Assembly (NCBI GenBank): GCA_965219455.1
Contig: OZ244744.1
Span: forward strand, 4,864,001-4,928,000
Direction of reading: 5' to 3'
Source: Candidatus Latescibacterota bacterium
GTDB lineage: Bacteria; Latescibacterota; UBA2968; GCA-2709665
Length of the DNA stretch: 64,000 nt
This document shows, piece by piece, positions 17,738 to 39,728 of this stretch (position 1 is its first letter; the number at the start of each line of letters is the position of its first letter). The translations under genes and the position numbers were made by a program. Below the pieces are notes generated by a model. It was not told where the DNA came from. It saw only the letters and a list, made by a program, of their open reading frames with translations, and did no database searches.

Positions 17738-18757
17738 ATGACACGGCGTCCGTTGCTGGGGATCACGATGGGAGATGTCTGCGGCATCGGTCCGGAGGTG
17801 ATCGCAAAGGCGTTGAGTCATCCGGAGGTATACGCGTTCTGCCGGCCGCTCGTGGTCGGCGACGTGGATGCCCTTGTCGCCAACCTGGCGCATTCGAAGC
17901 GTCGGATCGAGGTTCGAAGGGTCGACGCGCCAGAACAGGGTCGATACCGCTTCGGACAGATTGATCTGTGGGCACCAGTCGACGTGGATCATGCGCAGGT
18001 CGAGACAGGCCGGGTCTGTCCCGAAGCGGGCCGGGCGGCCGTGGAATGGGTGGTTCGGGCGGTGGATCTGGCGGTGGCGGGGCGGATCGATGCAATCGCG
18101 ACGGCGCCGCTGAATAAGGAGGCGATGAACCGGGCCGGATTCCGGTATGCGGGTCATACGGAACTGCTCGCGGAGCGCCTGGGCGTTTCGGATGTCCGTT
18201 TGATGCTGGCGTCCGAACGCTTGAACGTGGCCCATGTCACGGGACACGTGGCGCTGGCTAAGGTGCCGGAATGGTTGACGGAAGCGCGCGTTCTCGGCAC
18301 GATCAGACTGCTCCACGGCGCTCTGACAAACATGGGCCGGCCGCGTCCCCGCATTGCCGTGTGCGGGTTGAATCCGCACGCGGGAGAGGCGGGTATCCTG
18401 GGCGGAGAAGACATGGAATTGATTCACCCGGCAGTTCATACGGCGAATGCCGAGGGAATGCGGGTTGCCGGGCCGTTGCCCGCGGATACGGTTTTTCTGA
18501 AGGCGTACAACGGGGAGTTTGATGGCGTGGTGGCGATGTACCACGACCAGGGCCACGCGCCCGTCAAGCTGGTGGCGTTCCACGATGCGGTAAACGTGAC
18601 GTTGGGCCTGCCCATCGTCCGGGTGTCCGTGGACCACGGTACGGCGTTCGATATCGCGGGCAAGGGCGTGGCGGACGAGAACAACATGCTCGAAACGCTA
18701 CGCCTGGGGACGCGCCTGGCCGAAAGAAAGGAATTGAGACCGGTTGACGATGAGTAA
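17738..18757 (+). CDS. pdxA: 4-hydroxythreonine-4-phosphate dehydrogenase (PdxA/PdxA2 family)
   Basis: TMGD..GIGPE, GHTE, GLNPHAGE, AMYHDQG and RVSVDHGTAFDIAGKG motifs. Confidence 0.93.
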   Translation: MTRRPLLGITMGDVCGIGPEVIAKALSHPEVYAFCRPLVVGDVDALVANLAHSKRRIEVRRVDAPEQGRYRFGQIDLWAPVDVDHAQVETGRVCPEAGRAAVEWVVRAVDLAVAGRIDAIATAPLNKEAMNRAGFRYAGHTELLAERLGVSDVRLMLASERLNVAHVTGHVALAKVPEWLTEARVLGTIRLLHGALTNMGRPRPRIAVCGLNPHAGEAGILGGEDMELIHPAVHTANAEGMRVAGPLPADTVFLKAYNGEFDGVVAMYHDQGHAPVKLVAFHDAVNVTLGLPIVRVSVDHGTAFDIAGKGVADENNMLETLRLGTRLAERKELRPVDDE

Positions 18758-18783
18758 GACTCTGGCCCCGCGCCTTTGCGATT

Positions 18784-19161
18784 TCAGTCCATACCCGCGA
18801 TGAAATCCATGGTCACGAGATGGTCGCCGATGTCAGTAAACACCGGTGAACGCGCCGGTGGGTTTTCCGGGAAGAATGCGGCATAGGCGTCGTTGAAGTC
18901 CGCGAATAGCGATCGGTTGTTGAGGAAGACGGTGACCTTGAGGACGTTTTCCAGCGAGGTTCCCGCGTCTTCAAGAATGCCGGATACATTGGTGAGGATG
19001 CGGCGGGTCTGCGCCCTGACGTCGCCGGATTCCGGGTTCCCCGTTTCCGGATCCACCGGCGGCTGGGCGGAGATGAACATAAGGTCGCCGTATACAATGG
19101 CCTGTGAGTAGGGAAATTTGGGGATGTTTCCTCTCGGGCTGGTGAATGGTCTTTTTTTCAT
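18784..19161 (-). CDS. RidA/YjgF/UK114 family protein
   Basis: PYSQA, NVLKVTVFL and FN..YA.FF...PPAR motifs. Confidence 0.88.
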   Translation of the reverse strand: MKKRPFTSPRGNIPKFPYSQAIVYGDLMFISAQPPVDPETGNPESGDVRAQTRRILTNVSGILEDAGTSLENVLKVTVFLNNRSLFADFNDAYAAFFPENPPARSPVFTDIGDHLVTMDFIAGMD

Positions 19162-19256
19162 GGCGTGTCCTTTCCGGTAAACATGCACTTTGTGGTCTCT
19201 GAGTGCCGTAATATACACCCCGCGTCTGCTTGCAAAACACATATCCCGTCAGGTAG

Positions 19257-19898
19257 ATGACCGATATGAAAACATCTGAATTTTCCGCGTACGAGCATAT
19301 CCTGGACAATCGGCACCACAGCGTGGCCGATTTTCTGCGAGTTCACCTGTCCGACGCCGACGTGTATCGTCTGGTTTCGGCGTATTTTACGATCTACGGT
19401 TACGAGGCTTTGGAATCCGAACTGCGGGGCGTAAAGGATGTCCGCTTTCTTTTCGGCGATCCTGCGTCCGTGGGCGAATTGGACCCGGGAGAGAAAGAGC
19501 CGAAATCCTTCGACCTGACAGAAGACGGACTCTCGCCGCATCACGTTCTGCAGCAAAAACACCTGGCGCGGAGGTGCGAGGAATGGGTGCGGAGAAGACG
19601 TGTGAGTATTCGGTCCATTGGCAAGTCCAACTTTCTTCACGGCAAAATGCATCTCTCTGAATCTTCCAATGGAGGAGCAGCGGTGGTAGGAAGTTCCAAC
19701 TTTACCAAGAGGGGACTTGGTTGCGATCAGGGGGCAAACGTCGAAATCAACCTCTCAACCGCTGATCCGGCAATTCGTAATGAATTGCGTACCTGGTTCG
19801 ACGATCTCTGGACAGACAAGGAACTCACCCGAAATGTAAAAAGGGAGGTCCTCGCCGCTCCCTCTGTGCCTATATTAATGAGGCAGGGTTCCCCGTAA
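19257..19898 (+). pseudogene. N-terminal PLD-nuclease fragment of a PLD-SNF2-type helicase (truncated)
   Basis: LVSAYFTIYG, FLHGKMH, VGSSNFT.RGLG...N.E.N and WFDDLW motifs. Similarity stops near 19858 and no helicase motifs follow. Confidence 0.75.
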
Positions 19899-19910
19899 AT
19901 TAGTGAGCAA

Positions 19911-20285
19911 TTGAGAGGGCAAAGGAGCGTGAGGCCGCTTGAAGAACCCCTTTCCAACGGCAGACGAAGTCTGCTTGATATATTGGTCGATGAGAAAACG
20001 GCTCCCCCTGACACCGACCTCTTGCGCGAATCTGCGCTGAAACAGATATACGAAGCGCTTGAGCTCCTCACACCTCGTGAGTCGCATGTCATCAGACTCT
20101 ATTTTGGCCTCAATGGCAATGACGGCCTGACGCTTGAAGAAATCAGCCACATGATGAAGCTCACGCGCGAGCGGATTCGCCAAATCAAAGAGAAGGCACT
20201 CAAAAAGCTACGCCGTCGGGCGCGTTACGAGGAGCAAGAGTTAGTAACCAAATGGCCTATTACGTCAAGGTATCGAACGCCGTGA
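19911..20285 (+). pseudogene. RpoD/SigA-like sigma factor C-terminal fragment (regions 3.2-4 only)
   Basis: LTPRESHVIRLYFGL...TLEEI....LTRERIRQIKEKALKKLR; region 2 is absent and there is an in-frame stop at 19896. Confidence 0.75.
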
Positions 20286-20329
20286 CAGCCCACGTGGGCG
20301 GTGTGAAAAAGAAACGCATATTCGGGAAC

Positions 20330-20376
20330 TACGGATTCACGGCGGGCGAAATACGAGGCTGCCCGTGAAATCCGTA
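20330..20376. repeat. inverted repeat tacggattcacgg...ccgtgaaatccgta
   Basis: Imperfect hairpin with GGAT/ATCC core, possibly related to the periodic ATCC family. Confidence 0.5.
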
Positions 20377-20469
20377 CAACCGGACCGAACTGATTTTGAG
20401 TTGGTAACGTCGCTTGTTATCTTTGAACGTGTAAGCTTAAAACATGCTTAATTGGACGGAACAGTCAAA

Positions 20470-21690
20470 ATGGCAAGTCTGACACAAGCGGATCTAACAC
20501 GTATCGTCGAAGCCCGCGAGTCTGATCGCGTCGAGTTCAAGGAAACACTGTCTGGTGATGCGACTACCAGGATCAGGGAAGCTATCTGCGCTTTTGCAAA
20601 TGACTTGCCGGATTACGATACTCCGGGCCTTGTTCTTGTGGGCGTGAAAGACGATGGGACGATTTGCGATTTCAGTGTAGCGGATCGGGTGCTCCAGACG
20701 TTGGCTGATATGAAAACCGACGGGAATATCGTCCCTCCGCCCTCGATGACGGTGGAAAAGCGTACGCTGCAGGGAAGAGAATTGGCGTTGATTACCGTGC
20801 AGCCATCCAATTCGCCGCCGGTTCGATACAAAGGAGCCATCCACATCCGAACGGGTGCCCGCCGTGGGACAGCCACGGCACAAGATGAAAGGATCCTCAA
20901 CGAAAGACGTCAGTACGGAGATCGCCCATTCGACATTCATCCGGTTTCTTTCGCTGCCCTGAGCGATCTCAACCTTTCCCAGTTCGAGCATGAATACTTG
21001 CCACAGGCCTTTGATCGCGATGTTCTGGTAGCCAACGAACGCACGCTCGAAGAACGGTTGGCCGCGACAAAGATGATTGCCTCCGCTGCTGATCCCGTTC
21101 CTACTGTGCTAGGCCTACTCGTACTCGGCAAACGGACGCTGGATCACCTGCCGGGAGCGTACATTCAGTTCTTGAGATTTGCCGGCAATGAAGTAACGGA
21201 CGACATAACCGATGAAGAGGCAATCAGCGGAACCGTTATGGACGTGCTGCGGCGCCTCGACGAGAAGCTGAACGGACACAACCGGACATCGGTTGACGTT
21301 ACATCGGGATCAAGAGAGAGGCGAGTCAGTACGTATCCTATCGCAGCGATCCAGCAGATCGCTCGCAATGCAGTCATGCACCGATCGTACGAGGGGAACT
21401 ACACTCCAACGCGAGTTTACTGGTACGACGACCGCATAGAAATACTAAGTCCCGGGGGAGTCTTCGGCTCAGTAACAATAGAAAACTTCGGTCGATCTGG
21501 CATAACGTCGTACCGGAATCCCAATCTCGCGGAGGCGATGAGAAACTTGGGATTCGTGCAACGATACGGCATAGGCATTCCATTGGCCAATCGGCTGCTT
21601 CGACAGGCCGGGCATCCGGAAATGGAATTCAACGTTGATATGAACAACGTTCAAGTCATAATACCTTCTCGCAAGGACGACCTGACATGA
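20470..21690 (+). CDS. Schlafen/AlbA_2 domain + HATPase_c_4 (GHKL-like) protein
   Basis: ESDRVEFKE, ICAFAN and LVGVKDDG (AlbA_2); NAVMHRSY, DRIEILSPG and YRNP.LA...LGFVQRYG.G (HATPase_c_4). Confidence 0.88.
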   Translation: MASLTQADLTRIVEARESDRVEFKETLSGDATTRIREAICAFANDLPDYDTPGLVLVGVKDDGTICDFSVADRVLQTLADMKTDGNIVPPPSMTVEKRTLQGRELALITVQPSNSPPVRYKGAIHIRTGARRGTATAQDERILNERRQYGDRPFDIHPVSFAALSDLNLSQFEHEYLPQAFDRDVLVANERTLEERLAATKMIASAADPVPTVLGLLVLGKRTLDHLPGAYIQFLRFAGNEVTDDITDEEAISGTVMDVLRRLDEKLNGHNRTSVDVTSGSRERRVSTYPIAAIQQIARNAVMHRSYEGNYTPTRVYWYDDRIEILSPGGVFGSVTIENFGRSGITSYRNPNLAEAMRNLGFVQRYGIGIPLANRLLRQAGHPEMEFNVDMNNVQVIIPSRKDDLT

Positions 21691-22703
21691 CCGTTCCCGT
21701 TTTGACCTTTTTCAACAATAAGAGCGGTGTTGGCAAGACATCCCTGGTCTATCATCTGGCGTGGATGTTGTCCGACGTCGGTTATCGGGTGTTGGCCTGC
21801 GACCTCGACCCCCAGGCGAATCTAACCGCCGCATTTCTAAATGAAGAACAGTTGGAAGACCTGTGGCACGAAAACAACGACGCCTCCAACCGGACCATCC
21901 TGCAGTGCGTCTGGCCGCTGACAAAAGTCGGAGACATCAATGACCCGGGGCTTGCGGAAATTACACCTGCGTTAAGCCTGATACCGGGAGACTTGGCACT
22001 GGCGGGATTCGAAGACACGCTGTCGACGGAATGGCCTAACGCATTGGGTTCCGGCGAACTCTACCGTTCATTTCGTATTCTGACTTCTTTCTCAACCGTG
22101 ATGCAGCGTGGTGCAATGCAGATGAACGCCTCGGTCATTCTTGCAGACGTTGGCCCCAATCTTGGCGCGATTAATCGCTCGGCGTTGATTGCAACCGATC
22201 ACATCATCGTTCCCCTGGGCACCGACCTGTTTTCCCTCCAGGGCCTGCGCAACCTCGGTCCTACGTTGAATCGGTGGCGGGAAGACTGGAAGCGGCGACG
22301 GGACAACTGGAAGCAGCCGGAATTTCAACTGCCGGACGGGGAGATGCGCCCCGTCGGGTACGTGGTGCAGCAGCACGGCGTACGCCTGAGCCGCCCCGTC
22401 AAAGCATATGACAAGTGGGTCAATAGAATGCCGGCAGAGTACGCCCGGAACCTGTGTGACGATAACGAAGGACCGTACCCGCCCACACCTGCACAAGATA
22501 CGGAACACGCCCTTGCCACCGTCAAACACTACCGGAGTCTGGTGCCAATGGCTCAGGAAGTTCGCAAACCCATTTTTCATCTAACGACGGCTGACGGAGC
22601 GATTGGCGGCCACGCCGCCGCTGCAAATGACGCGCGCCGGGACTTCAGGGAACTGGCGATGAAGATCGTACAGCGAATCAATCTCGGGGATCGGTTCCAA
22701 TAG
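21687..22703 (+). CDS. ParA/AAA_31 family ATPase
   Basis: FFNNKSGVGKT, DLDPQANLT and DVGPNLGAINRSAL motifs; ATGA overlap with the upstream gene. Confidence 0.9.
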   Translation: MTVPVLTFFNNKSGVGKTSLVYHLAWMLSDVGYRVLACDLDPQANLTAAFLNEEQLEDLWHENNDASNRTILQCVWPLTKVGDINDPGLAEITPALSLIPGDLALAGFEDTLSTEWPNALGSGELYRSFRILTSFSTVMQRGAMQMNASVILADVGPNLGAINRSALIATDHIIVPLGTDLFSLQGLRNLGPTLNRWREDWKRRRDNWKQPEFQLPDGEMRPVGYVVQQHGVRLSRPVKAYDKWVNRMPAEYARNLCDDNEGPYPPTPAQDTEHALATVKHYRSLVPMAQEVRKPIFHLTTADGAIGGHAAAANDARRDFRELAMKIVQRINLGDRFQ

Positions 22704-22808
22704 GTAGTCAAATTGTGTCCATAGGGGCATCTTGTAGCGTCCAACCGGAATCTCCGTTCGGGGCGACCCTACAGAGGGGACGGATGCCATTGGCAAGGAG
22801 AAAAATAT

Positions 22809-24497
22809 ATGAATATCAATGCGAGTATTATCGATCAGAGGATAGCGGGTATCGTTGAAGATCACCTCGAATGGCTGCCGGAAGGGAACGACATCAACAA
22901 AATGAAGTCGGCGGCATTTGTACTCCTGTGCATGTCAACGTGCCTTGAAATAACGCTTGCAGACAGTGCCGAATTGCTTACCGAGGGCGGGAACGATGCC
23001 GGCGTTGATGGGCTTCACGTTGGCGAGGTTGAAGACGGTGATTTTCTCGTCACGATTTTCCAAGGCAAGTACAAAGTCAAGGATCTAGGCGGCAAAGCAA
23101 ACTTCCCGGAAAACGATGTGCAAAAAGCTATAGGTACCGTTAGGGTGCTGTTTGATCCCAATAGGAGCGTCGCGCTAAACAAAAAAATAGCCCCTAAAAT
23201 TGAGGAGATTCGCTCGTTGATCCGCGATGCGTATATCCCCAATGTTCGGGTAATCCTTTGCAATAATGGAGAGCGGTGGACATCGCAAGCAGATCATTGG
23301 GTAACTGGCGCAGAAGAGGATTACGGCGACAAAGTAAAGTTCCTCCACTTCAATCACGATTCCATAGTCAGCATCTTGCAGCGCAGCAAACAGGTGGATA
23401 CCACCCTGACTCTGAGTGGGCAAGCTATTGTAGAAGATATGAACTATATGCGCGTTTTGGTTGGGCGCGTTTCCGTTCAGGAGATCCAACGACTGTTTAA
23501 CGAGCACGGAGACAGCCTGCTCGAGCGCAATATCCGCCGCTACCTTGGGCTGCACACCAATCGCGTCAACACTGCAATTCACGAGACGCTTTGCGCTTCA
23601 GACAAATCTGACAAATTCTATTTCTACAACAATGGCATTACCGCAGTCTGCGACCGATTTGATTACAACGCCTTTCAGCAATCAGACTATCAGGTGCAAC
23701 TCAAGAATATGCAGGTGATCAACGGGGGTCAGACCTGCAAGACGATTCAAGAAACGCTAAATGGCAGTTTGCCCAACCTATTCGGCGAATCAGCTTATCT
23801 GTTAATCCGCGTTTACCAGTTGGGCGATACAAATAAAGAGTTTGTCCAAGATATCACCTACGCCACTAACAGTCAGAATCCAGTGGACCTCAGGGATTTG
23901 CGATCCAACGATGAGATGCAGAAGCAATTGGAGTTGGGCCTGTCTGGTCTGGGCTATACGTATAAACGCCAGCGAGAGGAGGGCGGGGGTGAGTCAGCGG
24001 TCATTACCAGTTCGACTGTGGCAGAAGCCGTGCTGGCAATCTGGCAAGAAAGGCCGCACCAAGCCAGATTCCGTCGCAAAGAGCATTTTGGCAAACTGTA
24101 CGAGGATATTTTTAAGCCGCTCAACGCAGCGCAGGCACTGCTTGCGGTCTTGATTTTCAGAGCTGTGGAGAACGAAAGAAAACGCCCGACAACGGCAACG
24201 CCACCGGACTTTCTGCCCTATTCGTCCCACTACATCGCCATGTTGATCGGCCGCAAGCTGCTAAAAGATGAGGGGCTTACCCTCGACCGAGTTTCCCATC
24301 GAAACGTTCAGAGACTCCGACAGGTGCTTGAAGGCGAGCGAGATCAATACTATGCGGATGCCGTCCAAGCACTGAAAAATGCGTTAAAGGCTTGCTATGG
24401 CGACCGGGTTGTTTCACTCCAGCAGTTGTCGGCGACCTTCAGGCGCGGCGACCTATTGGAGATGCTCGACGACAGCGAGAAAATGGAGCAGGCATGA
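22809..24497 (+). CDS. AIPR family (abortive infection phage resistance) protein
   Basis: GNDAGVDG..FQGKY nuclease-like N-terminus; LLERNIRRYLG, FYFYNNGIT, QVINGGQT and ATNSQN AIPR motifs; AAGGAG RBS. Confidence 0.92.
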   Translation: MNINASIIDQRIAGIVEDHLEWLPEGNDINKMKSAAFVLLCMSTCLEITLADSAELLTEGGNDAGVDGLHVGEVEDGDFLVTIFQGKYKVKDLGGKANFPENDVQKAIGTVRVLFDPNRSVALNKKIAPKIEEIRSLIRDAYIPNVRVILCNNGERWTSQADHWVTGAEEDYGDKVKFLHFNHDSIVSILQRSKQVDTTLTLSGQAIVEDMNYMRVLVGRVSVQEIQRLFNEHGDSLLERNIRRYLGLHTNRVNTAIHETLCASDKSDKFYFYNNGITAVCDRFDYNAFQQSDYQVQLKNMQVINGGQTCKTIQETLNGSLPNLFGESAYLLIRVYQLGDTNKEFVQDITYATNSQNPVDLRDLRSNDEMQKQLELGLSGLGYTYKRQREEGGGESAVITSSTVAEAVLAIWQERPHQARFRRKEHFGKLYEDIFKPLNAAQALLAVLIFRAVENERKRPTTATPPDFLPYSSHYIAMLIGRKLLKDEGLTLDRVSHRNVQRLRQVLEGERDQYYADAVQALKNALKACYGDRVVSLQQLSATFRRGDLLEMLDDSEKMEQA

Positions 24498-26583
24498 GAG
24501 AGGAAATCCAAGCCGCCTTGGTTGGGATTCCAAGCAATGACTTTAAGGCGGCAGTGCAGGACCTGCTGGCGGTCCTTGGCTACCGCGGCGAGCGGACGTT
24601 ACCCGGTCAGACGGGCGCCGTGGCCGATTTTATCGCGCAGTTTCCCGCTGCGAAAGAACGTACGAGGACGGAGCAGGCATTCTGCGAGTTGGTTCGGTCC
24701 ATGCGGCTCGTTTTTCAGGTGACAAGCGACGAGATTGCCGCCAGCACTCAACCCATGATAGCATTTGATCCCGCTTCCTTTGACAAAGCACATCAGCAAA
24801 GCTTTATTTTCTTCGCAGTCGAACTCAAGGAAGCGACCTGCACTCGAGGACAGTACGCACGATTCACCCGCGAGATCAACAAGCGCTTGAATCAACCCTC
24901 CGTTGTTCTCTTCCGCACCACATCCAATCTGCTGACTCTTGCCTTTGTTCACCGACGTGAGCACAAGCTGGATCGGAAACGTGATGTACTGGGCAAAGTG
25001 TCGCTGATACGCGAGGTTGACCCGGAGAATCCCCACCGCGCCCATTTGGACATATTGGCTGAACTGTCGCTGGCCGAGTGCGCTAGATGGATGGATCTCC
25101 ACAGCAAGCCGCATAATTTTGACGGCCTGCTGGCCGCCTGGTTAGACAAACTGGACACCGAGGAACTCAACCGACGGTTCTACGGCGAACTCTTCGACTG
25201 GTTCGAGTGGGCGGTGGAGGATGCGAAATTCCCGTCGACCGTGCCTGCGGAGCAACAGGTAATCCGTTTGATAACTCGAATCCTTTTTGTCTGGTTCATC
25301 AAGGAAAAGGGATTGGTCAGGGAGGAATGGTTCGTACAAGCCGAAATGGAACAGTTGCTGAGCAGTTTCGGTGGCTCCGACTACTACCGCGCAGTCTTGC
25401 AGATGCCCGTACCGGGGATATTTACCTGCTTTTCTACGAAAAAGGTTGTCAACTGCTGAAACCTACCCAGGGTTTGTTGGCCTATATCACCTCCAACAGT
25501 TGGTTGAAGGCCAAATACGGCAAGGCCCTTCGCCGGTACTTCTCGGAGCGACACACGCCCCTTCGCCTGCTGGAGATGGGTAAGGATGTATTCAAGAATG
25601 CAATTGTCGATACAAACATCCTGATATTACGCACCGGAAAATGCAATGAAACCGGCAAGGCGGTGGATATGGACCGTCTGGCGGATGAAGACTTCCCACC
25701 ACCCGAGGATCTTTGGGGGACGTTTCGACCGCGGGTTGAAAAGCCTTGGAGCTCGCTTTCGGCCAGTGAACAGCCCATTTTGGACAAGATGGAAGCAACC
25801 GGGATACAGTTAATAGAATGGGATGTCGAAATAAATCGCGGGACCGTAACGGGTTACAATAAAGCCTTCATCATTGACGATGCGACCCGACAGGCGTTGA
25901 TTGGCGCACATCCAAATTCAGCAGAAATCATCAGGCCGGTGCTGCGCGGGCGTGACATCCAGCGGTATCAGGCACGGTGGGCGAACTTATGGTTAGTATA
26001 CATCCGAAAAGGTACAGAAATTAAACGCTATCCGGCGATTTATGGCCACCTGCAAAGATATATGGTCGGGCTCTCAGAGAAAGCGGGAGCGAACAAATGG
26101 TATGAATTACAGGCGAGGTGTCTCATTCCTATTGACATGTTCCGGAGTCCGAGCGAAATGCTTGACGCGCGTTTTAGACAGGAGAAATTAGTCTGGATGG
26201 ACCTGACGGATCAAGGATGATTCGCATTTGACGGAGACGGAATGTTCTGCACCAACACAGTGTATATGTTGACCGGCCACTCGGTCAAATACCTATGTGC
26301 AGTACTCAACTCGAATCTGATAACTTGGTTTATGCGGAATACCGCGCTTACTTCAGGAATGGGCGTAACCAGATGGTTTAGTATTTTTGTCGAAACCATC
26401 CCTATACCTAAAATCACCCCTGTAATGCAGCGTCCGTTCGTCCTCATGGTGGAATGCATCCTTGCCGCCAAAGCGGCTGATCCAGCGGGGGACACCAGCG
26501 AGCAGGAAGCGGAGCTTGATCGGCTGGTCTATACGCTGTACGGACTGACGGCGGAGGAGGTTGCGGCAGTGGAAACTGTCTGA
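24494..26583 (+). pseudogene. type IIG (Eco57I/TaqI-C-like) restriction-modification enzyme, internally deleted and nonsense-mutated
   Basis: N-part LDTEELNRRFY, IRLITRILFVWFIKEKGL, YYRAVLQ joins out of frame near 25403 to ARTGDIYLLFYEKG...YITSNSWL. No SAM-binding or NPPY motif remains. TGA at 26218. C-terminal tail DRLVYTLYGLT. Confidence 0.85.
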
Positions 26584-26687
26584 ACCGCAGATGAGGCGGA
26601 TTATAAGGACTATACAGATTAAATCCTCATCATCCGAAGATCCGTTACACGCGCAGCGCAACGCCAGTAATCCTGGTCCTGATAATT
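26582..26687 (+). repeat. degenerate GAT/ATCC periodic repeat
   Basis: gaaccgcagatgaggcggatt...aatcctcatcatccgaagatcc...aatcctggtcctgataa; the 3' end matches the copies at 28.7 and 39.7 kb. Confidence 0.55.
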
Positions 26688-27102
26688 GCGTGGAGGGAGT
26701 ACCCGATCGGAAACGGTATGTAATTAGACGGCAAATCGTCCAAGATATTGGCCGATTTTGGGAGGATCGCCTCTCGGGAGAAAGCCAGAAGCCCTTCAGG
26801 CGATGGCTCGAAGCAAAGTAGCCGGCGGTCCTGGACGAGCCTGCGTAGGTACATGGATGTGGCTAATGGATGCGTAACAATTTTGCTCTGGATCTGGCAT
26901 ATACAGGCGATTTGCATACGCACAGCAATGATAATAAAAAAATGAAAGACCGTTCTATCGCAATTAACCGATATTCTCCTACGTTGCGCCGACTGGAATT
27001 TACCTATTGCCAGCACTGCGGGTCGACGATTCAGTAAGAATAAAAAAGCCCGGCTTGATTGAGGGGTTAATAGATCAACCGAGCTTGAAAGGACTTCTCA
27101 CC

Positions 27103-28125
27103 ATGTCCAAGTCAGAATTACCTGCTGAAGATTCGGGAATTGACACTGCTGAATCGGGGCTTAACACAGCCATTGCGGCAATCACGGGAGTACCTATTCC
27201 TGGACCAGTTAGGCAGAACGCCTGGAAAGCATTTGGGCGTCTCTGTTCAGCAGCTATAGAGGTGCCATCAGCTTATTTTGATGGTGTCGCTGCTGAAAAA
27301 AGAGCCATAGCGGAAGCACGGGTAAAACTTATTGAATCGAATGCAACACAGATAGCCCGCCAGATAAAAGTAGATGAAGAATATGCGCGGGTTGCAGTTC
27401 GAAGGTATGGACAGAAGATCATCCGTGAACAGGTGAATCTCGATCTAATCAGTGAGGAAGCTGCACGCCAGCTAAACGACACTAACGACGCTCAGACAAG
27501 CGGAGAGGTTGGACAAATAGACGACGATTGGCTTAATCATTTTGAAAAGGAAGCGAGTCAGCGAAGCACCGAAGAAATGCAGCAGCTATTTGGAAGAATT
27601 CTCGCAGGAGAGATTCGTCACCCCTCGTCCTTTTCCATTAGAGCTGTGAAGATTATGGGTGAAATAGATACAGTAGCCGCCAACCTGTTCAAGAAACTTT
27701 GTTCGATCTGCATTGTGTCGAGGATCCCGGGGAGGAACCAGGTACTCGAGGCTCGCGTGCTATCTCTTTCTGGGAATGCGGGAAACAATGCACTTCAGAA
27801 ATACGGATTAGACTTCGATCAACTCAATATCTTGCATGAGTATGGGTTGATCATTTCGGACTACAATTCATGGAGGGACTACGGGTCATCCGTTGCAAGT
27901 AAGGATAATGTAGTCTTACTTGGATTTTCATATCAGAATACTTATTGGGGCTTGTTATCAGAGGGAGATCGAAAGGAAGGGCAAGAACTAAAACTACATG
28001 GTGTCGGTTTATCCAAAGCGGGACGAGAGTTACTCAACATAGTAGAGACAGAACCGATTGAGAATTACACCAATGATCTCGCAAATTTCTTTGCCAAAAA
28101 AAAGCTGAAGATGATACCAATATAA
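27103..28125 (+). CDS. DUF2806 domain-containing protein
   Basis: REQVNL, IDDDWLNHF...STEEMQQLFGRILAGEI..P.SFS motifs; visibly low GC. Confidence 0.8.
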   Translation: MSKSELPAEDSGIDTAESGLNTAIAAITGVPIPGPVRQNAWKAFGRLCSAAIEVPSAYFDGVAAEKRAIAEARVKLIESNATQIARQIKVDEEYARVAVRRYGQKIIREQVNLDLISEEAARQLNDTNDAQTSGEVGQIDDDWLNHFEKEASQRSTEEMQQLFGRILAGEIRHPSSFSIRAVKIMGEIDTVAANLFKKLCSICIVSRIPGRNQVLEARVLSLSGNAGNNALQKYGLDFDQLNILHEYGLIISDYNSWRDYGSSVASKDNVVLLGFSYQNTYWGLLSEGDRKEGQELKLHGVGLSKAGRELLNIVETEPIENYTNDLANFFAKKKLKMIPI

Positions 28126-28135
28126 AGAAAAAGTC

Positions 28136-28249
28136 ATGAAAAGCGGTGAGCAAGAAGCGGAGATAGATCAACGTGTCTATGCGCGGTACGGCCTGATGGA
28201 GGAAGAGATTGTCATCTTGGAGAAATCTATCTGTCTGAAGGGAGATTAA
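28136..28249 (+). pseudogene. orphan second copy of the type IIG R-M C-terminal tail (37-aa mini-ORF)
   Basis: MKSGEQEAEIDQRVYARYGLMEEEIVILEK compared with EQEAELDRLVYTLYGLTAEEVAAVE at 26500-26583. Confidence 0.75.
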
Positions 28250-28498
28250 CCTTCGGCCGAACTCAGGTCAAAGCCTCATTGATTACGTAGCCAAATTTCA
28301 AAATATATTGAAGGGATGTTTAAAAAATGCGGAGCCTCCCATTCTTGAAGTAAATGGAATCTGTCCACTCCGATAGTGTTCCGCGGGATAAGGTATTCGC
28401 AATGCTTCCAGCACCTGTTCATCCGCTTGGGTCACTGCGTCGTCCAAGAACGTAAGCGGGAAATCAATGGGCGACCCGAACAGGCCCCGCATTTTTAC

Positions 28499-28687
28499 AA
28501 TCTTGTCGCCAATCAAGTTGTGGTTGAGCTAAAAGCGGTCATTGAGCTGGCGGATGTTCACATTGCACAGGCGAGAAACTATGTGGTGGCGTACGATTTT
28601 GATTACGGTCTATTGATCAACTTCGCGGCAGAATTCCTGGAAAACAAACGGCTGTACAACAAGAAGCCAAATCCTGTCAATCCATAA
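28499..28687 (+). pseudogene. GxxExxY (PD-(D/E)XK-like) protein, C-terminal half only
   Basis: LVANQVVVELKAV..L.DVH.AQ..NY......GLLINF....LE.KR; the N-terminal GxxExxY motif is missing. Confidence 0.8.
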
Positions 28688-28712
28688 ATCCAGTAAATCC
28701 TGATCCTGACAA
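28669..28712 (+). repeat. periodic ATCC repeat overlapping the GxxExxY stop codon
   Basis: ATCC at 28671, 28680, 28688, 28697 and 28703, ending aatcctgatcctgacaa. Confidence 0.7.
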
Positions 28713-28764
28713 TTTCCACCCAACGCCAGGTTGGAACCACGCCCACACACGGAGGAGTCGTAAC

Positions 28765-29997
28765 TTGAAAATCAGACCTGACCTCGTACCCTCGGCCGAG
28801 GAGGACAACCTGGAGGTCATCCAGCTTACGGATGAGTCGATTCCCTCGTCACACATCTACATGGAAGCGCAGATTTTCACGCCCGACTCACAGCGGCTGG
28901 TGCTCCATCGTTCCGCGCACCCCCATGGCTCCGATCCCAGGGACCCGGAACACAGGTATCTGATCTGCGACCTGGAAGATCGCTGCCGTCTGACGCCAAT
29001 TACGACCGAACCGGGAACGACCGCGCCCTCCATCTCACCCGACGGCGACTGGCTCTACTACTTCGTCGATGAGACCGACCCCGCGCGGCCCGGGCCGCTC
29101 ACGCTCAAACGGGTGAGTCCGGACGGGTCGGATTGCGAGGTGATCTATGTCCTGGATCACGCCATCCCGGGCACGGATTTCCGGATCAGCCGTCCGTATC
29201 CGCTCTCGACCATTTCATCCGACGGCAGGCGGATTGCCATTTCAGGATTCCTGGGCGACGGCCAAACCGAAGGCGCGCCGTGGGGCCTGCTCGTCTTCGA
29301 GATCGACGAGCCATCCGTACGGTTGGTCTTTCACGGCCCGACCTGGTGCAATATCCACCCGCAGTACACGCGGCAGACCGGGCCGGACGCCTCCCACGAC
29401 ATCATGATTCAGGAGAACCACGGAAACGTCGCGTCCCCCGACGGCAGGCTGGAGAAACTCGTGAGCGGACGCGGCGCCGATATCCACCTCATCCGGGACG
29501 ATGGAACCTGTCTCCGTGACTTTCCGTGGGGCCGGGACGGGAACGAATTCTGTCAGGGACACCAATGCTGGCAGGGACGGTCCGATATTGCGATCACGAG
29601 TACGTCGACACGCGAACCGAACGAGAGACAACTCATTTCCGGCCGCGCCGCGGCGCACGCCGGTCACCACGGCAGCCGGACTCCCGACGGATGGCGAAAC
29701 GACCTGTCCCGTTCGTTCAACGGACCGGATTTCTGTCATTTCGCCACGGACGTCGCCGGACGCCGTCTGATTACGGATGCCGGCCCCAGGGACGGGGGCG
29801 GCGCGGTATGGCTGTTCGATCTGCCCGGCGAGGCGCACGGCGCGTTATCGAGTGCAAGGAAGGTCGCGAGCCCCGGGTCGTCCTGGCGAAAGCATACCCA
29901 CATCCACCCGTTTCTGGCGCCGGACGGACTTTCCGGCTTCTTCAATTCCGACGAAAGCGGCGTACTCCAGGCGTACATGGTGCGCGGCTGGTCCTGA
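28765..29997 (+). CDS. beta-propeller protein, oligogalacturonate lyase/TolB-like
   Basis: IQLT, HIYME..IFTPDS, SPDG repeats, NIHPQY, GHQCW and HIHPFLAPDG...FFNSD motifs; GGAGGAG RBS with TTG start. Confidence 0.7.
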   Translation: MKIRPDLVPSAEEDNLEVIQLTDESIPSSHIYMEAQIFTPDSQRLVLHRSAHPHGSDPRDPEHRYLICDLEDRCRLTPITTEPGTTAPSISPDGDWLYYFVDETDPARPGPLTLKRVSPDGSDCEVIYVLDHAIPGTDFRISRPYPLSTISSDGRRIAISGFLGDGQTEGAPWGLLVFEIDEPSVRLVFHGPTWCNIHPQYTRQTGPDASHDIMIQENHGNVASPDGRLEKLVSGRGADIHLIRDDGTCLRDFPWGRDGNEFCQGHQCWQGRSDIAITSTSTREPNERQLISGRAAAHAGHHGSRTPDGWRNDLSRSFNGPDFCHFATDVAGRRLITDAGPRDGGGAVWLFDLPGEAHGALSSARKVASPGSSWRKHTHIHPFLAPDGLSGFFNSDESGVLQAYMVRGWS

Positions 29998-32353: not shown

Positions 32354-32428
32354 GGCGGCGTGGCCAAGCGGTAAGGCAAGGGCCTGCAAAGCCCCGATTC
32401 GGCGGTTCGAATCCGCCCGCCGCCTCCA
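32354..32428 (+). tRNA. tRNA-Cys(GCA)
   Basis: GGCGGCG/CGCCGCC acceptor stem, CTGCAAA anticodon loop, GGTTCGAATCC T-arm, encoded CCA. Confidence 0.95.
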
Positions 32429-32545: not shown

Positions 32546-32631
32546 GCCGGAGTGATGGAATTGGTAGACATAGGGGACTTAAAATCCCCCGGGCCGATAA
32601 GCCCGTGCCGGTTCGAGTCCGGCCTCCGGCA
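32546..32631 (+). tRNA. tRNA-Leu(TAA)
   Basis: GCCGGAG/CTCCGGC acceptor stem, GGGGA-CTTAAAA-TCCCC anticodon arm, long variable arm, GGTTCGAGTCC; CCA not encoded. Confidence 0.95.
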
Positions 32632-32664
32632 CTCTCACGATACCGAATCCAAGAGGGCTGTCCT

Positions 32665-39633: not shown

Positions 39634-39728
39634 AATCCTGCGATCCTGTAAATCCTTGAATCCTGATCCAGACGGTGTTTGCGAGTACAGTCACCACGCG
39701 AAAAAATCCTGTAAATCCTGATCCTGAA
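39634..39728 (+). repeat. two blocks of periodic ATCC repeat
   Basis: ATCC at 39635, 39643, 39652, 39660, 39666 and at 39706, 39715, 39721; both blocks end aatcctgatcc(a/t)ga. Confidence 0.7.

Follow-up and report, generated by a model that had tools for sequence, protein, structure and literature searches.

The block between positions 19257 and 28712 of the 64,000-nucleotide stretch analyzed here (contig OZ244744.1 of a Candidatus Latescibacterota bacterium, positions 4,864,001 to 4,928,000; below, the window) is a genuine defence island with clear limits, at a site that varies at the level of the genus. It is likely the local version of an island that the genus carries between ridA and a gene for a PD40 beta-propeller protein, with a core, a restriction-modification (R-M)-like operon, that has been wrecked and with four candidate defence genes that have stayed whole. 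As such islands and the way they decay are familiar, there is nothing unusual in the locus as such; it is of value as a worked example in which the footprints are dated: one site in one genus presents the system intact, broken in several different ways and absent, and small effector modules have survived the loss of the large restriction-like system around them. Three leads follow from it, namely a Schlafen-ParA gene pair that occurs across phyla, an operon for a PLD-SNF2 helicase, a sigma-like protein and a type IIG enzyme, and conserved gene ends that may serve as anchors for exchange.

The GC content of the 9456-bp block is 0.514, against 0.583 for the 5.84-Mb genome, and values as low or lower were found in 0.93% of 11,670 sliding genome windows of the same size. 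All 500-bp bins between positions 19000 and 28999 have a GC content of 0.45-0.56, with 0.59-0.66 on either side. The large open reading frames (ORFs) of the block are on the + strand throughout. Gene families were assigned by Pfam, PADLOC and NCBIfam profile searches, for which 15 ORFs of the window were scanned. The original prediction, made from the letters of the window alone, had described an AT-richer block of ca. 9.5 kb with all genes on the + strand, in the order PLD fragment, sigma fragment, Schlafen-GHKL, ParA, AIPR, broken type IIG gene, DUF2806, duplicated R-M tail and GxxExxY remnant. As can be seen from the profile matches, each of these genes was recovered in the same order, and the PADLOC run that had been proposed as a check matched AbiU nearly over its full length and the IIG models.

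Both flanks of the island were searched for in 30 relatives. The left flank consists of pdxA and ridA (Endoribonuclease L-PSP; 18784-19242, - strand, Pfam 8e-23), the latter being conserved in 30 of 30, and the right flank is the PD40 gene (28765-29997, + strand, PD40 9e-10), conserved in 14 of 14 congeners; the two were linked only in the 14 genomes of the same genus (G001 to G014). In five of these (G012, G007, G003, G014 and G008) the flanks are 36-221 bp apart, i.e., the site is empty. The distance is ca. 530 bp in G004 and ca. 1.3 kb, with a PIN-antitoxin pair inside, in G005; it reaches 14.8-20.5 kb in another six genomes (G002, G011, G013, G010, G001 and G009), and in G006 the two flanks lie on separate contigs. 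The interval is 9.5 kb in the genome studied here. Thus, the ridA-to-propeller comparison that the original prediction had called for reveals a variable site.

From the islands of the relatives, 64 of 71 called ORFs were scanned, the other seven being short ORFs that overlapped the flanks or came from the smallest sites. Every occupied site opens beside ridA with a gene for a PLD-SNF2 helicase of 1094-1097 amino acids (aa) with PLDc_2, SNF2 and Helicase_C domains. In G010, G002 and G009 it is followed by a gene for a sigma-70-like protein of 539-546 aa, of which a truncated remnant is left in G001. The next gene at occupied sites encodes an Eco57I/MmeI-type enzyme of 1184-1258 aa. All three scaffold genes are intact in G010 and G002 (1095, 546 and 1206/1187 aa). 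The 5' part of the helicase gene is common to all six occupied relatives and the window at 82-91% nucleotide identity, and that of the IIG gene at 82-90%. The identity of the helicase part to the window parallels that of the core flanks (80-94%), which fits an ancestral operon with later losses, and the PLD-SNF2 helicase/type IIG pair, common to the occupied sites, is probably their ancestral occupant.

Downstream of the IIG gene, the content differs between occupied sites, in line with the expected variation of cargo between congeners. An AAA_15 ATPase gene with a 195-aa companion was assigned to PDC-M47/PD-T4-4 by PADLOC in G010, and the same Pfam pattern is found in G013, G001 and G002. Further defence genes at these sites encode SoFic, PDC-M11, a prokaryotic Argonaute (pAgo) with a Cas4-like nuclease, a PIN-PrlF pair and a TIR protein. 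Mobile genes are present as well, a tyrosine recombinase in G011 and G009 and insertion sequence (IS) transposases in G013 and G009.

In the window, all three scaffold genes are, to judge by their sequences, dead. Of the ca. 1097 codons of the helicase gene only the first 201 remain (19257-19859, + strand, PLDc_2 6.6e-10; the ORF runs to 19898, into a repeat), and by tblastn residues 1-201 are 93% identical to the G011 helicase. The sigma-like gene is reduced to about its last 107 codons, region 4 (19935-20285, + strand, ORF 19911-20285, Sigma70_r4 4e-18), which correspond to residues 440-536 of the G010 sigma-like protein at 59% identity (tblastn). In G011, the closest relative, ca. 4 kb separate the corresponding points, helicase codon 201 and sigma codon ca. 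440; in the window the gap between the two pieces is filled exactly by positions 19860-19929.

The IIG gene has lost 546 codons and has acquired a frameshift and an in-frame stop at 26218-26220. By tblastn against the G011 enzyme, residues 15-314 of 1258 are found in one frame (24494-25402, + strand, 78% identity), in an ORF (24392-25459) that ends out of frame, and residues 861-1256 in another (25405-26601, + strand, ORFs 25207-26220 and 26242-26583, 57% identity). A single uninterrupted IIG ORF of ca. 1000-1300 aa is not present; there are three ORF pieces. Motif I (DPAVGSG) and NPPY lie at residues 528-553 and 764-835 of the G011, G010 and G013 enzymes, inside the interval that is missing here, and NPPY is absent from all three frames over 24391-26850. 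The C-terminal target-recognition part gave a TaqI_C match of 1.2e-5, just under the cut-off, on 26242-26583 and a partial Eco57I match, and on the pieces in the window the alignments to the PADLOC IIG models reach the ends of the models. A genome scan found no second helicase/IIG system of the same type. Thus, the claim that the ancestral R-M pair is broken here is confirmed by tblastn mapping and by the motif search. The truncated ORFs 19257-19898 and 24494-25459 each still encode a whole domain (PLD and the IIG N-domain, respectively).

The IIG N-domain gave no Pfam match, no PDB sequence match and no Foldseek match at E <= 0.001. Its fold was predicted with a mean local confidence (pLDDT) of 77.9 and weakly matches residues 2-143 of DrdV, which we take to be the endonuclease domain of that enzyme (Z 6.5, root-mean-square deviation 3.6 over 119 residues, VIA-align), a score below the level that would exclude chance. 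The intact sigma-70-like protein (G010, locus L013 3502-5142; regions 1.2, 2 and 4) begins with a domain of 260 aa that shares 47% identity with the N-terminal domain of the IIG enzyme encoded next to it. A sigma factor with a restriction-enzyme domain is unusual.

The four cargo genes, which had been predicted to be intact, are full length when compared with their homologues. The first (20470-21690, + strand, alternative start 20452) encodes a 406-aa fusion of a Schlafen (AlbA_2) nuclease and a HATPase_c_4 ATPase, with homologues of 400-412 aa. It matches PF04326 with 61.7 bits (cut-off 25.3, 1.3e-16) and PF13749 with 65.8 bits (cut-off 26, 3.5e-18); its only PDB match is a single uncharacterised entry, 3lmm. 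The Ex4ExK motif is ESDRVEFK at residues 17-24, and 12 homologues show no variation at E17 and E22 and almost none at K24. The second gene (21687-22703, + strand), the start of which overlaps the Schlafen stop in ATGA, encodes a 338-aa ParA-like P-loop ATPase (AAA_31, 91 bits, cut-off 27, 1.1e-25) with a deviant Walker A motif, NKSGVGKT, at residues 11-18, where 18 sequences all have K12, G14, G16, K17 and T18. No ParB-like Pfam match was found among the scanned ORFs of the window; a centromere-like site was not looked for. The third (22809-24497, + strand) encodes a 562-aa AIPR/AbiU-type abortive-infection protein (PF10592, 180.6 bits, cut-off 25, 7.7e-53; PADLOC AbiU, 1.8e-51, positions 21-515 of 537) that is 95.6% identical to the 562-aa copy of G001, and its stop overlaps the IIG start in ATGA. 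The fourth (27103-28125, + strand, ORF from 27007) encodes a DUF2806 protein of 340 aa from the likely start (PF10987, 94 bits, cut-off 24.5, 1.6e-26; TIGR03899, 8.5e-22), with homologues of 340-357 aa.

According to the accessible part of PMC13056530, prokaryotic Schlafens defend against phage, Ex4ExK is their catalytic signature and fusion to HisKinase is their commonest architecture (34%). A DUF2806 protein is described as the anti-phage system Belisama in the accessible part of a preprint (bioRxiv 10.1101/2024.07.02.601686).

In order to place the Schlafen gene, its best 80 homologous loci were surveyed, all from metagenome-assembled genomes (MAGs) of Latescibacterota, Poribacteria, Chloroflexota, Rhodothermales, Nitrospirales and Gemmatimonadetes. 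A ParA homologue lies directly 3' of the Schlafen gene in 54 of them; three of the remaining 26 have too little downstream sequence. No convincing + strand partner was found at the loci lacking ParA, where the downstream + strand ORFs look spurious. A helicase and/or IIG gene is present within 8 kb in 13 of the 54 Schlafen-ParA loci versus 2 of the 26 Schlafen-only loci. The pair is nested in helicase/IIG loci in four cases (L025, L074, L077 and L100) and lies upstream in five (L039, L043, L047, L050 and L055). A complex prediction for Schlafen and ParA with two alignments gave 0.00 against a mark of 0.32 and, being made without controls, says nothing either way on binding. No Schlafen-ParA pair was found described in open-access full text, which is weak evidence that none is in print.

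One may ask what the pair does at such loci. It is possible, though we hold this tentatively, that Schlafen and ParA form an autonomous two-gene anti-phage system, in which ParA would sense the infection or gate a tRNA/RNA nuclease activity of the Schlafen protein, and which would be carried from one distant phylum to another inside PLD-SNF2/IIG operons, recombine by way of the conserved ends of their genes and outlive these operons when they decay; the operon, whose sigma-70-like subunit has an N-domain of the IIG type, would then be an undescribed type of ATP-dependent restriction. An alternative that we consider unlikely is that Schlafen-ParA, and perhaps AIPR, are accessory "backup effectors" of the helicase/IIG system, which, orphaned here, may be inert or awaiting loss. 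The 13 linked loci come from at least five named phyla and show two gene orders, and operon integration is indicated by the four bases, ATGA, that Schlafen shares with ParA and AIPR with IIG. There is also a parallel: in the accessible part of PMC12839542, Schlafen-HisK-wHTH genes are backup effectors inside BREX and BREX-like loci in at least 1017 taxa. Since Schlafen-ParA is tied to helicase/IIG loci across phyla and in different orders, the word "passenger" may understate a functional link. However, neither a helicase nor an IIG gene lies within 8 kb at 41 of the 54 Schlafen-ParA loci, ParA is missing downstream of the Schlafen gene at 23 of the 77 loci whose downstream sequence reaches 1 kb or more, and in this genome, which has no second system of the kind, the pair is intact, as it is in G011 and G013.

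The original prediction also held that the intact passengers are under selection. This was not shown: the ratio of nonsynonymous to synonymous divergence (dN/dS) is 0.12-0.32 for Schlafen, ParA and AIPR versus 0.10-0.38 for the broken fragments (helicase 0.10-0.14, IIG 0.13-0.23, sigma 0.32-0.38), and the two sets are not separable. The helicase and IIG fragments equal pairs of intact genes (0.11 and 0.17, respectively), so the breaks are recent and too young for the test. The same equality speaks for a neutral decay of the whole island, with the cargo intact only because the damage is recent and with none of it maintained by selection here, as does further damage in the islands of relatives: a frameshift in the sigma-like gene of G011, an IS in IIG codon 37 of G013, an interrupted helicase (after codon 952), a truncated Schlafen and a truncated IIG gene in G001, and a fragmented IIG gene at L074. 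We nevertheless regard such a decay as improbable. No stop or frameshift interrupts the ca. 1650 codons of the four cargo genes, whereas each of the three scaffold genes is broken, and between phyla the Schlafen and ParA proteins retain 60-90% identity and many invariant alignment columns. An RNA library (X18) yielded contigs on the Schlafen and ParA genes, a weak point given that DNA carry-over is possible; no such contigs fall on the AIPR and DUF2806 genes, which is not evidence of silence.

The boundaries of the pieces were mapped by comparison with relatives. Homology to all six island-bearing relatives ends at 19858-19860 and again at exactly 25403, where the tblastn frame changes between 25402 and 25405. 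The DUF2806 gene ends at 28125, and a second copy of the extreme C-terminal IIG tail begins at 28127-28142 when compared with the IIG proteins of five relatives. Further to the right, DNA homology to two relatives begins at 28501 and 28512. Abrupt junctions had been placed near 19858, 25403, 28130 and 28499; the first three coincide with homology breaks, while the last, of which the start of homology to the two relatives is the sole sign, is less clearly a junction in this genome. The duplicated R-M tail is real (28127-28240, + strand, tblastn E 2e-5 to 6e-3) but short, at ca. 25-30 codons.

The block had also been described as free of integrase and transposase. This holds for its genes, among which none was found by Pfam or tblastn, but not for its DNA, since positions 19860-19929 (+ strand) are a 70-bp copy of a dispersed repeat that is the left end of an IS3-family element, and not for the site, which carries recombinase or transposase genes in G011, G009 and G013. 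The repeat has five other copies in the genome, with pattern matches at 10 places. The copy at L005 is followed by OrfA (HTH_Tnp_1) and OrfB (rve), the layout of the IS3 family. Across the genome (L002-L007 and the window), the left end is part of one complete element, and at least six more pieces of it, 60-108 bp long, stand alone; several of these keep the ribosome-binding site and the first four OrfA codons. The window thus holds 70 bp of the left end only, the full copy being elsewhere in the genome. The presence of this end at the 19860 junction makes the deletion look mobile-element-mediated rather than a product of landing-pad recombination. Given the uniform length of the solo ends, the 70-bp element could be a small repeat family of its own.

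Public reads were examined for contigs that cross the junctions; twenty runs from ten studies contain part of the stretch, and X1 may be the source sample. The 25403 junction is bridged by identical contigs that span 25243-25675 (X1). The stop at 26220, the DUF2806 gene and the 28130 junction are bridged with 0-1 differences by contigs 25560-28307 (X4), 25648-28370 (X5) and 26952-28370 (X1), from three studies. The original prediction had called for long reads across the junctions; short-read contigs bridge those at 25403 and 28130, and none of those listed bridges 19860, where the repeat breaks short-read assemblies. That the junctions are assembly chimeras is hardly credible: the source does seem to be a community sample with related strains, in which depth goes up over conserved segments, many contigs continue into unlike sequence and the 19860 junction lies inside a repeat, but the genome is a single 5.84-Mb contig, the bridging contigs come from three studies, and parts of the same arrangement recur in G011, G001 and L074.

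Several footprints of exchange are seen within the island. Between the sigma fragment and the Schlafen gene lies the last-44-codon remnant of a second PLD-SNF2 helicase allele (20296-20427, + strand, tblastn E 1.4e-7), which is also present in G011 and at L074, a Latescibacterota MAG locus. The remnant matches the helicases of G013 and L100 best (58%), sharing with them the ending LVIFE, and in both of these the helicase stop is directly followed by a Schlafen gene. Because the remnant is nearest to helicases that precede Schlafen, the Schlafen-ParA cassette would have come from a helicase-Schlafen-ParA-IIG locus into a helicase-sigma-IIG locus; one crossover probably lay in the well-conserved 5' part of the IIG gene. 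A second footprint is the segment 25404-28141, which comprises the IIG C-terminal half, ca. 245 bp resembling G013 and the DUF2806 gene and is followed by the second IIG tail, an arrangement to be expected if foreign DNA had replaced the older IIG body. IIG tails standing alone are found at L077 and L100 as well.

The divergence from relatives is mosaic. Synonymous divergence from G011 is 0.03 for Schlafen, 0.18 for ParA and 0.34 for the helicase fragment. The ParA gene, the AIPR gene and the IIG 5' part are 91% identical in nucleotide sequence to G001, and AIPR is absent from G011. The Schlafen protein of the window is 81% identical to that of L022 and 62% to that of L100, and the corresponding values for ParA are 83% and 90%. 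Schlafen alleles seem to have been swapped against a conserved ParA. The idea that the ancestral pair serves as a recombination landing pad finds partial support in the helicase and IIG gene ends left beside the cargo; it does not extend to the 19860 junction with its IS3-type end. Conserved gene ends may act as recombination anchors for the exchange of cassettes.

These observations can be arranged in the following order of events. The original occupant would have been an ATP-dependent R-M-like operon for an HKD (PLD)-SNF2 nuclease-helicase, a sigma-70-like protein and an Eco57I/MmeI-like type IIG/IIL enzyme. A deletion of ca. 4 kb between helicase codon 201 and sigma codon ca. 440, marked by the 70-bp IS3-type end, may have come first, and the loss of 546 IIG codons, including the SAM-binding and NPPY motifs, with the shift of frame and the stop further on, may have come second. 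The segment 25404-28141, with the IIG C-terminal half and DUF2806, was probably brought in by recombination, with the old IIG tail staying in place. The predicted survivors, i.e., the Schlafen protein, putatively coupled in translation to ParA, the AbiU-type AIPR protein and the DUF2806 protein, most likely act alone as abortive-infection-type effectors.

Several points weigh against a wrecked core with functional survivors. The HisKinase-type Schlafens tested in E. coli gave no protection, and the two protective constructs had other fusions, according to the accessible part of PMC13056530. The excess of helicase/IIG linkage, 13/54 versus 2/26, suggests that the Schlafen-ParA pair may depend on that system. 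With dN/dS failing to set the cargo apart from the fragments, the cargo could be intact only from the recency of the damage, and in G001 the Schlafen gene is reduced to its last 90 codons. The solo IS-type ends are all of similar length, which is odd for relics of random deletion, and the 19860 junction is the one without a bridging contig among those listed.

The scaffold and the cargo were also compared with known systems. The enzymes of 1184-1258 aa in the relatives resemble types IIG and IIL (Eco57I, MmeI, DrdV) in having Eco57I, MmeI_Mtase, N6_Mtase and TaqI_C matches together with DPAVGSG and NPPY; the enzyme of the window differs in its missing codons, both absent motifs, frameshift and stop. 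In contrast to the usual single-protein layout of type IIG, the relatives' enzyme always follows a separate HKD-SNF2 helicase and often a sigma-70-like protein. Type ISP enzymes pair a methyltransferase with a nuclease-helicase. BREX-related type 2 (Hma-like) systems and DISARM, as presented in the accessible part of PMC12839542, are alike in having an HKD nuclease N-terminal to an SNF2 helicase and an N6-adenine methyltransferase. The relatives' helicase matches the DrmD, BrxH and HmaA models, its best PADLOC model being "C3a139 HKD+Snf2" (1.4e-109). As for the other Hma-like components, DUF499 and DUF3780 were found neither in the 15 ORFs of the window (E <= 0.01) nor in the 64 ORFs of the relatives (E <= 1e-4), and PADLOC gave no HmaC. 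As for DISARM, the searches yielded no DrmA, DrmB (DUF1998) or second helicase gene, the only likeness being that of the helicase domains to the DrmD/DrmA models.

The sigma-like protein matches MzaA (4.4e-61 in the relatives, 1.7e-21 for the piece in the window) and the AIPR protein matches MzaE (3.5e-16), but the MzaA score is 207.6 against a cut-off of 800 bits and the MzaE score 58.8 against 1050 bits, AIPR fits AbiU far better, and the other Mza models have no match in any scanned ORF. The 562-aa protein not only spans nearly the whole PADLOC AbiU model but also matches the PHROG "Abi alpha-like abortive infection" family; its gene differs from AbiU in being embedded in a restriction-like operon, where the stop codon overlaps the start of the IIG gene, and its function is a prediction from similarity. 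The Schlafen gene has the same AlbA_2 domain, Ex4ExK motif and HATPase-type fusion as the HisKinase class of PMC13056530, from which its subfamily differs in usually having a ParA-like partner (54 of 80 loci), a partner not found in the accessible parts of PMC13056530 or PMC12839542. The Belisama system of a Vibrio chromosomal integron (bioRxiv 10.1101/2024.07.02.601686, accessible part) is a single DUF2806 gene, and the likeness to the gene in the window is the shared Pfam domain. No PLD-SNF2/sigma/methyltransferase system was found described in open-access full text, weak evidence that none is in print, and by its predicted domains the PLD-SNF2/sigma-like/type IIG operon fits no named system.

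The remaining parts of the block and its surroundings are as follows. The 500 bp between the IIG end and the DUF2806 gene (26602-27102) are entered by an 86-aa ORF (26561-26821) without a family match in Pfam, PADLOC, NCBIfam or PHROG, and over the first 245 bp they are similar to the DNA that follows the IIG gene in G013. The right edge of the island is a GxxExxY (PDDEXK_3) fragment (28394-28687, + strand, ORF from 28376; PF13366 5.4e-12, model positions 27-110 of 117; TIGR04256 7e-14), which the genome scan placed at 28394-28630. Promoter and terminator scans over 18700-29100 gave sites no more frequent than in shuffled sequence. An Rfam search of the window found two tRNAs and nothing else; these, tRNA-Cys (32354-32428) and tRNA-Leu (32546-32632), are not adjacent to the island but 3.6 kb away on its right. 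No direct or inverted repeats bracket the island, the sole spanning pair (I1) having 21-nt arms of 86% identity inside genes. An integrase-borne tRNA island is not indicated, there being no integrase in the block, no tRNA nearer than those at 32354 and 32546 and no flanking direct repeat. A prophage or integrative and conjugative element remnant was also considered and rejected, as PHROG matches were generic only and no structural or conjugation genes were found by Pfam.

A short AATCCTG-type repeat (28670-28708) lies just 5' of the PD40 gene. One copy each is present at the empty or short sites of G003 and G005, and G004 has three tandem units of ca. 95 bp (L016 460-700). An AATCCTG-rich repeat is found again at 39640-39726 of the window, upstream of another gene, with an exact copy at 39705-39726. 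Such a repeat could make the right edge of the site prone to recombination.

Three further observations concern the islands of the relatives. A 1271-aa protein is encoded downstream of the IIG gene in G010 (L013 10067-13882) and G013 (L009 3412-7227); it has no Pfam, PADLOC or NCBIfam match and matches PHROG 18693, a family of unknown function, over its full length (4.8e-145). In G009 (L011 2257-7080), the pAgo gene is seemingly split by a DDE_Tnp_1_4 transposase, and genes for the Cas4-like nuclease and an HTH protein adjoin. Directly 3' of the intact IIG gene, G011 (L008 2012-3807) and G009 (L011 7830-9540) carry the tyrosine recombinase together with a second TaqI_C cassette on the opposite strand, a layout known from invertible specificity switches (shufflons).

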